This document shows, piece by piece, positions 25,621-38,540 of a DNA stretch of 64,000 nucleotides; positions within the stretch are counted from its first letter, which is position 1, and the number at the start of each line of letters is the position of its first letter. The stretch lies in IMG/VR virus record IMGVR_UViG_3300037504_001427, positions 1 through 64,000 of that record; one strand, 5' to 3'. A program made the translations under genes and the position numbers. The notes beneath the pieces are model-generated. The model searched no databases. It saw only the letters and a list, made by a program, of their open reading frames with translations, and was not told the DNA's origin. Source of the stretch: a virus.

Positions 25621-26088
25621 TCATGCAGTGCTCCGAGGGTCCACCACCATGATCTTGTTGATCCGTTCCGCCAGATCGGGGTGAATGATGGCCACCACGA
25701 TCTCCTGGTCCTCGATGGCAACCTTGGTCGAAACCATAGGGGTCTGGGCCGTCTGCCTAGCCGTCTCATAGGCGTCCAGGAGCGGCCCCAGGTCAGTCAT
25801 CATACCGTGTGTCCTCGGAGCGGCATCATCACGCGCGCACTTCCGCAGAGACGCTAGGTCGAAACGGGATACGGAGACGCCTTCCACGAATCCGCACCCG
25901 GCGACCCAGACGGTGCAGCACTGGTCACTCGCCGGCTGGTCCATAATGCGGACCTCGCGTCCGATCAGCGGGGCCCAGAAGGAATTGGCTCGATTCTGCT
26001 CGGTATCGGCCACGGGCGCACGCAAGATTTCTTTCCCGTGTGCGAAGCCGCAGCCGTAGTCGTTGCCACCGCCTACTGGATATCTCAT
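25621..26088 (-). CDS. hypothetical protein starting with the array leader MRYPVG
   Basis: MRYPVGGGNDYGCGF followed by unique sequence. Confidence 0.6.
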   Translation of the reverse strand: MRYPVGGGNDYGCGFAHGKEILRAPVADTEQNRANSFWAPLIGREVRIMDQPASDQCCTVWVAGCGFVEGVSVSRFDLASLRKCARDDAAPRTHGMMTDLGPLLDAYETARQTAQTPMVSTKVAIEDQEIVVAIIHPDLAERINKIMVVDPRSTA

Positions 26089-26282
26089 CGCCCCTCCACT
26101 GTGCCGCGGCCGTTGCCATAGCCAGCGCCGGTGCCGTAGCCGTAGCCGAAGCCGTAGCCGTCGCCGTAGCCGAAGCCGTAGCCGAAGCCGTAGCCGAAGC
26201 CGGCGCCGAAGCCGGCGCCGAAGCCGGCGCCGTCGCCGTGGCCGAAGCCGTGGCCGTAGCCGTAGCCTACTGGATATCTCAT
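26085..26282 (-). CDS. Gly-X repeat microprotein (representative unit)
   Basis: MRYPVG(GX)nGTVEGR; RBS ggagg; ATGA overlap at both ends. Confidence 0.7.
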   Translation of the reverse strand: MRYPVGYGYGHGFGHGDGAGFGAGFGAGFGYGFGYGFGYGDGYGFGYGYGTGAGYGNGRGTVEGR

Positions 26283-35435: not shown

Positions 35436-38400
35436 CTATCTTCCCTCCACCGTGCTAATGCCGCCGCCGTGGCCGAAGCCAAAGCCGTGGCCGAAGCCGT
35501 AGCCGAAGCCGTGGCCGTCACCTACTGGATATCTCATCGCATCATCTCCAGGCCTCCACTGTGCCGTAGCCGTTGCCGTGGCCGTAGCCGTTGCCGTAGC
35601 CGTTGCCATAGCCGTCGCCGTAGCCGTAGCCGTAGCCGTTGCCGTAGCCGTCGCCGTAGCCGTAGCCGTCGCCGAAGCCGTCGCCGAAGCCGTAACCGTA
35701 ACCGTAGCCGTAGCCGTAGCCGTCGCCGAAGCCGTAGCCGTCGCCGAAGCCACCGCCGAAGCCGAAGCCGTAGCCGAAGCCGTGGCCGAAGCCGAAGCCG
35801 TCACCTACTGGATAGTTCATCGCCCACCTCCCACTGTGCCGAAGCCGTCACCTTCATCGCCCACCTCCCACTGTGCCGTAGCCATCGCCGTGGCCGTGGC
35901 CGTAGCCGTTGCCATGTCCTGCTGGATATCTCACCGCCTGCCGCCGGCCTCCTGATGTGGCTCAAAGAGGTAGACCTGCACCTCTGGTTCGCGCTCGAAG
36001 GCTGTCACGATCAGGGGTTTGACCTGCTGCCAGTTCAGCCCACCAAGGCCGCAGCCGAGTGGCGGAATGGCAATCGACTGAATCTGGAAGGTCTGCACGA
36101 CGGCAATCAGGTCATCCAGTCCGGTGGCGATGTCGTCCAGTTGGCTGCGCTGTCGCCAGTGGTCCTTGGTCGGGAAATTGATGATCAGCGGCGACTTGGC
36201 GCTGGTGTGCACGAACATCTTGCCCAGCTTGACCTGCCTCCGGTTGCAGGCGTCGCGGTAAGCAACGAAGTTGTCGGGCCAGGCATTCTTGAACTGGAGC
36301 GCCAGGCCCTTGCCCATCACGCCAACGGTGTTCACTGGGTTGACCAGCGCCTGAACCCGTGGTGCCCACGCCAAGATGTCGCCAGAGCAGGACTCGATCA
36401 CGGATACCTCATCGCCTGCCTGCCGCTGTGCCGAGCCCGTAGCCGTAGCCGTCGCCGGTGCCGTAGCCGGTGCCGTAGCCGGTGCCGTAGTCGGAGCCGG
36501 TGCCGGTGCTGTCGCCGTCGCCGTCGCCGTAGCCGTCGCCGAAGCCGTCGCCGAAGCCGTAGTCGGAGCCGTGGCCGTAGCCGTAGCCGTCGCCGAAGCC
36601 ACCGCCGAAGCCGAAGCCGTAGCCGAAGCCATAGCCGAAGCCGAAGCCGGCACCTACTGGGTATCTCATCGCCTGCCCGCCACTGTGCCGAGCCCGAAGC
36701 CGAAGCCGTATCCGTTGCCGAAGCCGTCGCCGTAGCCGTCGCCGCTGCTGTTGCCGTTGCCGTTGCCGTTGCCACCACCGAAGCCGTCGCCGTTGCCGAA
36801 GCCGTCGCCGAAGCCGTCGCCACTGCTGTTACCGCGACTGTCGCCGTTGCCGTTGCCGTTGCCGCAGCCGTAGCCGAAGCCGAAGCCGTCACCTACTGGA
36901 TATCTCATCGCATCATCTCCAGGCCTCCACTGTGCCGTGGCCGTGGCCGTAGCCGTTGCCGAAGCCGTCGCCGTCGCCGTAGCCGTCGCCGTTGCCGTTG
37001 CCGTAGCCGTCGCCGTCGCCGTAGCTGTCGCCGAAGCCGTATCCGTTGCCGAAGCCGTCGCCGTTGCCGTTGCCGTAGCCGTCGCCGTCGCCGTAGCCGT
37101 CGCCGTAGCTGTAGCCGTAGCTGTCGCCGTGGCCGTAACCGTAGCTGTCGCCGCTGCCGTCACCTACTGGATAGTTCATTGCCCACCTCCCATCCGTAGC
37201 CGTCACCTACTGGGTATCTCATCGCCTGCTCGCCGCTGTACCGAGCCCGAAGCCGAAGCCGTATCCGTTGCCGAAGCCGTCGCCGTAGCTGTCGCCGTAG
37301 CCGTTGCCGTTGCCGCGACTGTCGCCGTTGCCGTTATCGTTGCCGCAGCCGTAGCCGAAGCCGTAGCCGCCACCTACTGGATATCTCATCACCCACCTCC
37401 CACTGTGCCGTGGCCGTTGCCGTTGCCGTCGATGTCGCCGTAGCCGTTGCCGTAGCCGGCGCCGAAGCCGTAGCCGTAGCCGAAGCCGGCGCCGTCGCCG
37501 GAACCGTCGCCGAAACCGTCGCCGAAGCCGGAGCCTTCGCCGTCGCCGTCGCCGTCGCCGTAGCCGTAGCCGTCGCCGTAGCCGTCGCTGTCACCGAAGC
37601 CGTCGCCGAAGCCGAAGCCGCAGCCGTCACCTACTGGATATCTCATCGCATCATCTCCAGGCCTCCACTGTGCCGTGGCCGTAGCCGTTGCCGTTGCCGA
37701 AGCCGTAGCCGAAGCCGTAGCCGAAGCCGTGGCCGTAGTCGGAGCCGTAGCCGGTGCCGTAGCCGTAGCCGTAGTCGTCGCCGAAGCCGCCAAATCCGTC
37801 GCCGAAGCCGCCGCCGCCGTAACTGTCGCCGAAGTCGGAGCCGTCGCCGAAGCCGTAGCCGTCGCCGAAGCCACCGCCGAAGCCGAAGCCGTAGCCGAAG
37901 CCGTAGCCGAAACCGAAGCCGTCACCTACTGGATAGTTCATCGCCCACCTCCCACTGTGCCGTGACCGTTGCCGTTGCCGTCGATGTCGTCGTAGCCGTG
38001 GCCGAAGCCGAAGCCGTAACCGTAGCACGCCGGCAGGCGCATCGCAAAAACGGTGAATGATGCGTCGCCGAAGTCGTAGCCGAAGCCGCAGCCGTAGCCG
38101 AAGCCGTCGCCAAAGCTGTAGCCGTAGCCGTAGCCGTCGCCGAAGCCGAAGCCGCAGCCGTCACCTACTGGATATCTCACCACCTGCCCTCCACCGTGTC
38201 GTAGCCGCAGCCGTCGCCGTCGCCGAAGCCGCAGCCGTAACTGTCGCCGTAGCCGAAGCCGTGGCCGTTGCCGTCGCCGTTGCCACCACCTACTGGATAT
38301 CTCATCGCCCACTTCCAACTGTGCCGTGGCCGCGGCCGTTGCTGTTGCCGCAGCCGTAGCCATCGCCGTCGCCGTCGCCGTAGCCGTAGCCGTCGCCGTA

Positions 38401-38540
38401 GCCGTCGCTGTCACCGAAGCCGTAGCCGTAGCCGTAGCCGTCGCCGTAGCCATCGCCGTCACCGAAGCCGTCGCCGTAGCCGTCGCCGTCACCGAAGCCG
38501 TAGCCGAAGCCGCCACCTACTGGATATCTCATCGCCCACC
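35436..38540 (-). repeat. Gly-X micro-gene array block C (12 intact units plus degenerate ones, interrupted by the macrodomain gene)
   Basis: ORFs 35436-35537, 35542-35820, 35854-35934, 36409-36669, 36666-36908, 36913-37179, 37219-37389, 37389-37646, 37651-37941, 37938-38180, 38177-38305, 38302-38532. Confidence 0.95.
35931..36401 (-). CDS. Macrodomain ADP-ribosylhydrolase (DarG N-terminal/TARG1-like)
   Basis: GDIL...LVNPVNTVGVMGKGLALQFK...IINFPTKDHWR...IAIPPLGCGLGGL.W. Confidence 0.9.
   Translation of the reverse strand: MIESCSGDILAWAPRVQALVNPVNTVGVMGKGLALQFKNAWPDNFVAYRDACNRRQVKLGKMFVHTSAKSPLIINFPTKDHWRQRSQLDDIATGLDDLIAVVQTFQIQSIAIPPLGCGLGGLNWQQVKPLIVTAFEREPEVQVYLFEPHQEAGGRR

Follow-up and report, generated by a model that had tools for sequence, protein, structure and literature searches.

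Coupled Gly-X gene arrays in a virus genome: a probable lineage-specific amplification of a widespread phage gene family

The minus strand of an uncultured virus genome, IMG/VR record IMGVR_UViG_3300037504_001427, carries, at positions 25,621-38,540, arrays of small chained genes whose products alternate glycine with a variable residue (Gly-X). The region was analysed in a window of 64,000 nucleotides (positions 1-64,000 of the 87,639-bp record), and coordinates below are those of the window unless they are called genome positions. Judged from the sequence, the Gly-X arrays are real and most probably translated, and they appear to be a lineage-specific amplification of a widespread phage gene family that normally sits downstream, as a partner, of a DUF6948-type gene with a predicted Sm-like product. 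The first-pass annotation of this DNA had already described about 30 minus-strand micro-genes built from one junction, which agrees with our count; it had not recognised the array as anything known, and on this point its account needs correcting.

We scanned the 64-kb window with a pattern for the head motif, TGANNTAYCCNGYNGG. It matched 31 times, always on the minus strand (31/31) and between 26072 and 38531, and never in 100 dinucleotide-preserving shuffles (0 matches expected by chance). Translation from each ATG or GTG gave 31 open reading frames (ORFs) of 16-155 amino acids (aa) beginning M/V-[RKN]-YP[VA]G. Full units, which account for 28 of the 31, follow a single plan with an M[RKN]YPVG head, a (Gly-X)n core and a GTV..R(R) tail (most commonly GTVEGR, GTVAGRR, GTVSRR, GTVEAWR or GTVGGGR); they are typically 42-110 aa long, with one unit of 26 aa and a last one of 155 aa that ends in a non-repeat tail, and the three remaining ORFs, of 16, 20 and 22 aa, are short or degenerate. 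The plan of the first description, with constant ends around a variable core, holds, as does the recurrence of the element every ~50-330 bp (start-to-start spacing inside arrays is 43-332 nt). Eleven more heads lie outside the window at genome positions 72811-80153 (10 full units and one short copy), which brings the genome-wide number to 42. The 37 full repeat-only units, leaving aside the 155-aa last unit, cover 8.7 kb or 9.9% of the genome.

Over the 42 units (2499 codons) the commonest residues are G (1161), Y (373), D (283), F (223), N (148), S (67), T (58) and H (48). Gly makes up 46% of the core and X is mainly Tyr, Asp, Phe or Asn, much as had been noticed before; Lys and Arg do not occur in the cores. 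Of the 38 units tabulated, 33 carry a negative net charge, the lowest value being -13, and each unit holds 3-27 Tyr and Phe residues in dense GYG/GFG triplets. All 42 copies keep start, head and stop in the Gly-X frame, and this frame has no stop codon among its 373 TAY codons. The units are predicted to be disordered, with a predicted local distance difference test score (pLDDT) of 31.7 for the AlphaFold2 (AF2) model of one unit and of 0.40 for an Atlas model, the nearest Atlas clusters being unnamed viral proteins. Pfam and PHROGs returned no family for the units or for two non-repeat domains fused to them, and a protein search with a single unit gave one weak match only, to a Gly-X head on a globular protein. 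Matches of Gly-X stretches to TrAA12, KRTAP and CFAP143 were rejected as low-complexity noise. Several frames of the repeat are free of stops on either strand. On the plus strand over the arrays, for instance at 35469-37199, this leaves shadow ORFs (VAVAEA.., SRSRRR..) as long as 576 aa, which gene-calling software may choose in place of the Gly-X frame.

The junctions between units share one anatomy. About 18 of the in-window transitions are ATGA overlaps, a further 3-4 are TGATG and three read TGAtgcgATG, in line with the overlapping stops and starts first reported. The tail codons ..ACA GTG GAG GGG CGA overlap an ATGA tetranucleotide, whose TGA ends the unit and whose ATG starts the next one; the reading frame is moved by one base at each junction and then reset. 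A GGAGG-type Shine-Dalgarno (SD) sequence of at least 4 nt lies inside the preceding tail at 28 of the 42 starts. Downstream, the head codons are AT-rich and rare for this genome (AGA TAT CCA GTA): GC content is 0.43 in the first 17 nt of units vs 0.68 in a 41-nt core window, and predicted folding in 41-nt windows is weaker at starts (-7.1 kcal/mol) than in the core (-11.7 kcal/mol, p = 2e-8). Overlapping or abutting stops and starts, with an SD inside the upstream gene, are the marks of a translationally coupled operon, and promoter- and terminator-like sites show no excess over shuffles in the region. We infer that the junctions suit long polycistronic messages read by termination-reinitiation. 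A polyprotein made by programmed -1 frameshifting was set aside, G GGG CGA TGA not being a slippery heptamer and every unit having a start of its own.

Junction variants cluster by position, as had been noted, and the clustering fits local duplication: a pair made of an MNYPVG...TVEAWR unit and an MRYPVG unit recurs three times as a block. Together with a 50-nt duplication at 27767/27817, this block is the reason to propose that the arrays grew by unequal recombination between junctions and by slippage of the hexamers.

A search with the junction and the M[RKN]YPVG pattern had been proposed as a check. The exact junction and degenerate patterns for MxYPVG-Gly-X DNA gave nothing beyond chance hits in IMG/VR, JGI metagenomes and GTDB genomes, and it was a degenerate scan of IMG/VR for ten GGN-NWY hexamers that disclosed a broad phage family, with more than 119 viral contigs. 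Many of these encode small proteins of the form xPVG, (Gly-X)n, GT[VI]S..RR(R), and they belong to unrelated phages with a GC content of 0.38-0.64. The codons of the PVG head vary synonymously from phage to phage (CCA/CCT/CCC/CCG and GTT/GTA/GTC/GTG), the strongest indication that it is the Gly-X frame which is selected and translated. Heads of the x-P-[VI]-G type were found in 12 contigs and, among the matches listed, 10 of 12 complete ORFs carry a basic tail of the GT[VIP/C]..R(R) type (L036, L044 twice, L045, L046, L050, L057, L066, L085 and L123), those of L077 and L093 ending differently. Small arrays with a constant SD and stop/start junction (ATGA, TAAtATG or TGA-SD-ATG) occur in L044, L045, L064, L100 and L018, the last with four copies. 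A primase search in IMG/VR gave no close relative, and contig L003, whose DUF6884::TGT gene (687 aa) is 57% identical to the DpdA-like gene described below, lacks Gly-X runs over the 14.7 kb examined around that gene. The scans, the primase search and L003 together point to an amplification that is specific to this lineage.

Across the family, the Gly-X gene has a regular neighbour. Among the matches listed, 48 of 72 Gly-X loci have a DUF6948-type gene immediately in front of the Gly-X gene and on its strand, several of the other 24 being cut by contig ends; the gap ranges from -24 to ~+200 nt and the two genes often overlap. Classical members of this partner match Pfam DUF6948 at 1e-23 to 1e-33. 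Three partner subtypes can be told apart, each with its own Gly-X head, and partner subtype and head/tail type co-vary: the 'DRGWIFAGDV..HVFKWESIGF' subtype pairs with the xPVG..GTV..RR type, as in the present genome. In L037 the two are fused in one ORF (DUF6948::Gly-X). We found no paper on the family or on its pairing with DUF6948 using Gly-X strings, DUF6948 and 'fibroin heavy chain-like' combined with 'phage', and both appear new to the searchable literature. Gly-X runs next to DUF6948 genes were also seen in two further settings. In L016, L028, L084, L108 and P0001 they form the N-terminal head of a conserved ~150-aa globular domain (..GVKSLNG..VY.IDGVPTII..), and in L047, L058, L079 and L113 they follow a small 'AGAC..G' domain as its C-terminal tail.

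A single DUF6948-like gene occurs in the present genome. It is of the 'DRGW' subtype and lies at genome positions 76740-77003, outside the window, between two arrays and flanked by methyltransferase genes. The AF2 model of its product (pLDDT 92.5) is predicted to adopt an Sm/LSm fold, a bent five-stranded barrel. Foldseek aligns it with 3by7, 1i8f and LSm chains at TM ~0.6, VIA gives Z 8.4 (2.3 A, 63 aligned) and 8.0 (2.7 A, 72 aligned), and Sm/LSm chains stand at the top of both fold searches. BLAST ties it through 42 links (best 1e-15) to a WGTT subtype, which in turn has 5 links (best 1e-9) to classical members, and the nearest Atlas clusters carry PF22253. A profile of the 'DRGW' subtype retrieves 325 cluster representatives at E <= 0.001; tblastn of this subtype against cultured phages gave no match.

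Altogether, we hold it somewhat better than even that the arrays are an approximately 40-fold, lineage-specific amplification of a real phage Gly-X family, expressed through coupling and serving as partners of an Sm-like protein. The sequences themselves show a real, conserved family with a constant partner, amplified here and chained through a junction used over and over. Its proteins are small, acidic and predicted to be disordered, with a fixed xPVG head, a (Gly-X)n core and a short basic GTV..RR tail, and long leftward operons hold the units alongside DNA-modification and counter-defence genes. In such a message the ribosome would end a unit at the TGA of ATGA and restart on the overlapping ATG, helped in two thirds of the junctions by the SD within the tail codons (GTG GAG GGG) and also by the weakly structured, AT-rich head codons. 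About 40 different GYG/GFG-rich chains could then, speculatively, serve the single Sm-like protein as multivalent partners or as low-complexity tails detached from it, and amplification would raise the dose and variety of these chains early in infection. It is also speculative that the chains might assemble through GYG/GFG stickers as FG/YG domains do. A bolder version, in which the Sm-like protein and ~40 acidic chains form a phage ribonucleoprotein condensate or gel (a selective phase of the FG/YG type), with the array as a sticker library and the junctions as a plug-in platform for counter-defence genes, is in our estimate a long shot.

The genome shows how far the module can reach, with 42 copies, a tenth of the genome, and a junction reused for DNA-modification and macro-domain genes. 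The module itself is widespread (325 representatives of the partner subtype and cultured carriers), and the one mention that we found in print treats such a stretch as non-coding. This opens to test the pairing of an Sm-like protein with disordered Gly/Tyr chains early in infection, long termination-reinitiation chains, and the reasons why gene callers miss or mis-frame Gly-X genes.

Several observations weigh against this reading. No recognisable SD precedes 14 of the 42 starts, so the ribosome-binding site first ascribed to the junction as such applies to the other 28 only. Frame keeping, which had been taken to argue for selection, does hold in every copy, but it is weak evidence for selection because hexamer slippage itself preserves the frame. 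Nor is the lack of stop codons a clean test, because Lys and Gln codons are likewise absent from the units. Codon uniformity is very high (GGC 90%, X codons NNC) and could reflect homogenisation at the DNA level as much as translational selection. As for the partner, no unit here lies directly downstream of a DUF6948-type gene and the window arrays contain none; a 1.6-kb C5 methyltransferase gene (529 aa) separates the partner gene from the nearest unit. The Pfam DUF6948 (PF22253) hidden Markov model (HMM) gave no hit at E <= 0.1 to the partner protein or to the six-frame genome, and hhalign of the partner with classical DUF6948 was not significant, so that it is called DUF6948-like by an indirect link of transitive BLAST, Atlas neighbours and predicted fold. 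The sequence is held by one public run only, a tidal-flat metagenome that is possibly the source sample, and the public-run lookup lists no RNA dataset as holding this viral DNA. Finally, the Logan contigs of that run end inside the arrays; with these breaks and a single short-read assembly, the exact number and order of the units are provisional.

The chains could instead be anti-defence decoys or sponges, acidic Gly/Tyr/Asp polymers that blind a host sensor or enzyme, with amplification as an arms race and the Sm-like gene as a mere neighbour. Their negative charge suits such a role, the arrays interleave with a macro-domain gene, three C5 methyltransferase genes and a 7-deazaguanine operon, and in other phages the module sits in early regions near recombination genes. 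However, no search points to a known defence target, and the strict DUF6948 pairing, the co-variation and the L037 fusion point to a partner role instead. Population-level variability was not seen either (only 2 single-letter differences in the one run, each in one contig and 31 letters from its end), although this absence says little because contigs drop rare variants. We consider a decoy unlikely.

A selfish or near-neutral minisatellite is, in our view, slightly less probable again. It would have spread as a slippage- and recombination-prone GGC-NNC hexamer with the ORFs as tolerated by-products, which would suit the near-uniform third position, the openness of the repeat in several frames on both strands, and an amplification confined to one lineage and absent from L003. 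Against it stand the 42 of 42 copies with start, head and stop in the Gly-X frame, the conservation of head and tail as protein sequence, with synonymous codon changes, between distant phages, the real cost of 10% of a size-limited viral genome, and units that have diverged (exact identity of at most 75 nt, with one exception) without decay.

Other genes stand among the arrays. Array E comprises ten chained Gly-X units on the minus strand (36409-38532) with M/V-[RN]-YPVG heads. Its first five units are 38302-38532, 38177-38305, 37938-38180, 37651-37941 and 37389-37646, followed by 37219-37389, a short one at 37160-37222, 36913-37179, 36666-36908 and 36409-36669, and the tails are GTVGSGR, TVEGRW, GTVGGGR, GTVEAWR, GTAASRR, GTVAGRR and GTAAGRR. 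Unit 37938-38180 contains an in-frame insert of 36 bp, or 12 codons (plus-strand positions 38027-38062), that is a perfect same-strand copy of 13075-13110, part of the plus-strand gene 12816-13325; the match extends 0 nt on either side, and the copy looks like a template-switch or repair patch.

Array E leads into a macro-domain gene with a GTG start (35931-36401, minus strand; PF01661 at 1.4e-21, phrog_335 at 5.6e-36) by way of a four-codon ORF read from the sequence, ATG AGG TAT CCG TGA (MRYP*; 36398-36412, minus strand), which at its start shares ATGA with the stop of unit 36409-36669 and at its own stop shares GTGA with the macro GTG. The macro-domain protein ends in ...QEAGGRR, its stop overlapped by the GTG of the next unit. 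The four-codon ORF is an instance of the translational relay that the first-pass annotation had offered as one option, and the idea fares well: the junction couples cargo as well as units. Array F follows on the minus strand (35436-35934) with three units and a headless remnant at ~35821-35853; the units are 35854-35934 (26 aa, VRYPAG), 35542-35820 (92 aa, MNYPVG..TVEAWR) and 35436-35537 (33 aa, ..STVEGR, with a TAG stop). That TAG is abutted by the ATG of a queC-like gene (34755-35435, minus strand; named from the QueC annotations of its database matches), giving TAGATG, and GGAGGG in the unit tail serves as its SD.

The queC-like gene opens a minus-strand block for 7-deazaguanine DNA modification (30891-35435). 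Behind it come a putative FolE2-like gene (33976-34758, minus strand), assigned from its sequence alone, a DpdA-like DUF6884::TGT fusion of 671 aa (31979-33994, minus strand; PF21818, PF01702) and a PAPS-reductase-like gene (30891-31991, minus strand; PF01507). The C-terminus of the last, ..GYHTVEGRDEISSR, is a captured junction with one extra base that runs into the start of the next unit, a short one of 22 aa (MRYPVGDVYGFSDGYGLGYRDA; 30842-30910, minus strand) overlapping the end of the gene. An ORF of L003 that had been guessed to be a PAPS-reductase homologue is not one, and it gives no lead on the origin of the HTVEGR C-terminus.

Further along the minus strand, a 268-aa ORF (30004-30810) joins a domain of ~185 aa, for which no Pfam or PHROG family was found, to a complete in-frame unit (30004-30255, MRYPVG...GTVAGRR). 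It leads on in array H (29230-30007, minus strand) to units 29696-30007 (103 aa), 29466-29699 (77 aa) and 29230-29469 (79 aa), which have GTVA[GD]RR tails and ATGA overlaps. A tRNA-Met (CAT) detected by ARAGORN stands inside the chain (29125-29197, minus strand). Like a bacterial initiator tRNA it has no pair at position 1:72 (U.C), but its anticodon stem has only two of the three G-C pairs; immediately upstream of it, at 29201-29216, is a (CA)8 microsatellite. Next comes a cargo ORF of 88 aa with no Pfam or PHROG family (28841-29107, minus strand). Between its TGA and the ATGA of the next unit lies a tail remnant, cagtggagcgcgggcg.

That unit opens array I, twelve units on the minus strand (26085-28824) with mostly GTVEGR tails and GGAGG SDs: 28573-28824, 28337-28576, 28146-28340, 27817-28149, a short one at 27767-27817, 27528-27767, 27316-27531, 27098-27319, 26823-27101, 26551-26826, 26279-26554 and 26085-26282. 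The last unit of the window (25621-26088, minus strand) has an MRYPVG head and ~10 residues of Gly-X followed by a 130-aa non-repeat tail, for which neither a Pfam or PHROG family nor a homologue in the homology search was found. Outside the window, a second set of arrays at genome positions 72811-80776 (L129:8811-16776) is interleaved with three C5 cytosine methyltransferase genes and includes a fusion of a helix-turn-helix (HTH) domain with a Gly-X unit (genome 80150-80776); a SprT/DUF6782-like metallopeptidase match among these arrays was weak and below the cut-off. The longest exact repeat between units, 128 nt, joins two arrays 44 kb apart, 36426-36553 in unit 36409-36669 being identical to genome positions 80167-80294 in the tail of the HTH::Gly-X fusion. 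All other exact repeats between units are of at most 75 nt.

On this map the junction acts as a portable module that couples inserted genes, macro and queC among them, into the chain. One could go further and see the arrays as a recombination or cassette platform, with junctions as homology sites at which accessory genes are inserted, swapped or lost while coupling is ready-made. The macro, queC and PAPS-reductase-like genes and the 88-aa ORF are each joined through junction remnants, the 128-nt identity links distant arrays, and a clean 36-bp patch from another gene sits inside one unit. Yet neither the junction patterns, in three collections, nor the primase, in IMG/VR, led to a close relative that would show cargo turnover; the joints seen in Logan contigs have sides of only 20-24 nt and were discounted as probable repeat artefacts; and the single-copy module of other phages would be left unexplained. 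As the main purpose of the arrays, such a platform seems to us quite improbable.

Nor do we give much weight to an assembly artefact, in which short-read assembly of repeats would have inflated or scrambled the number and order of units. In keeping with such an error, the sequence is found in one run only, and the Logan contigs of this run end within arrays and contain spurious joints. However, the units differ from one another and their exact repeats (128 nt in one pair, at most 75 nt otherwise) fall below usual read lengths, so ordinary paired short reads could assemble the region. The unique cargo genes between the arrays are moreover present on Logan contigs of mean word depth ~70, and the 87,639-bp contig closes on itself through a 96-nt overlap of its ends. 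The last of the rivals, a library of precursors of ribosomally synthesised and post-translationally modified peptides (RiPPs), had been suggested at first and recalls multi-precursor systems (general knowledge) by its constant ends and variable core, but we dismiss it as having next to no chance, with a head of only 6 residues, little Cys, Ser or Thr in the cores, no match to radical-SAM or YcaO in the 87.6-kb genome (other enzyme classes were not searched) and no export or protease gene seen beside the arrays.

The genome that carries the arrays is recorded in IMG/VR as having direct terminal repeats, and CheckV puts its completeness at 59% although these repeats are present. Its replication genes comprise a family A polymerase, a helicase, a D5-like primase and a PD-(D/E)XK nuclease, and it also has a serine recombinase. 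Eight large unassigned ORFs tested against PHROG gave 0 matches, and a capsid, portal or terminase could therefore not be recognised in that set of eight. Two repeats unrelated to the Gly-X units were also seen: a tandem direct repeat with a 199-nt period outside the arrays (20848-21214), at least 168 nt of which are exactly identical between its two copies, and an exact 70-nt repeat shared, 40 kb apart, by 24663-24732 and genome positions 65078-65147 (L129:1078-1147).

The closest comparison is with cultured phages. The pair is found in Ralstonia phage NK-7 (XCO36016 and XCO36015, the Gly-X gene being annotated 'fibroin heavy chain-like protein'), in Pectobacterium phage Koroua (CDS0033 and CDS0032) and its kin, and in Iodobacter phage phiPLPE (gp84 and an unannotated stretch behind it). 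In these phages, as here, the module is a small gene of the early or accessory region, chained to the preceding gene and encoding (Gly-X)n with X = Tyr, Ser or Asp. In contrast, cultured and other phages have 1-4 copies vs 42 here, the partner is adjacent in the cultured phages whereas a methyltransferase gene intervenes here, and classical partners are within reach of the Pfam DUF6948 HMM, unlike the one in this genome. The only mention in print that we found concerns phiPLPE: Table 3 of PMC3391216 gives the stretch as a GC-rich repeat, (KMGCCG)35, which the paper takes, speculatively, for an attachment site and so treats as non-coding. We rejected the reading as a non-coding minisatellite or attachment site, given a start, head and stop held in one frame by all 42 copies here and kept across phages with different codons.

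Among better-known systems, multi-precursor RiPP families resemble the arrays in having many paralogous small genes with conserved ends and a variable middle. Prochlorosins are such a family, with a constant leader and a variable core. The leaders of RiPPs, however, are long, and a nearby gene encodes the enzyme that recognises them; the Gly-X head has 6 aa, no radical-SAM or YcaO match was found in the genome, and the genes are chained by stop/start overlap. FG nucleoporins, the YG domain of PEX13 and the [G/S]Y[G/S] low-complexity domain of FUS use aromatic-Gly stickers to form gels or condensates. The Gly-X units differ from these in being much shorter, strictly alternating, Asp-rich and from a virus of bacteria, and they share with them the dense GYG/GFG triplets in a chain predicted to be disordered. 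SmD1 and SmD3 carry (Gly-Arg)n tails, LSm4 an RGG tail and Acinetobacter Hfq a C-terminal domain of Gly-rich repeats. In the present genome the tail is a separate, amplified gene whose product is acidic and aromatic rather than Arg-rich, and the phage partner is known from its predicted fold; the common plan would be an Sm-fold core with a disordered dipeptide-repeat or Gly-rich segment, two parts that L037 joins in a single ORF.

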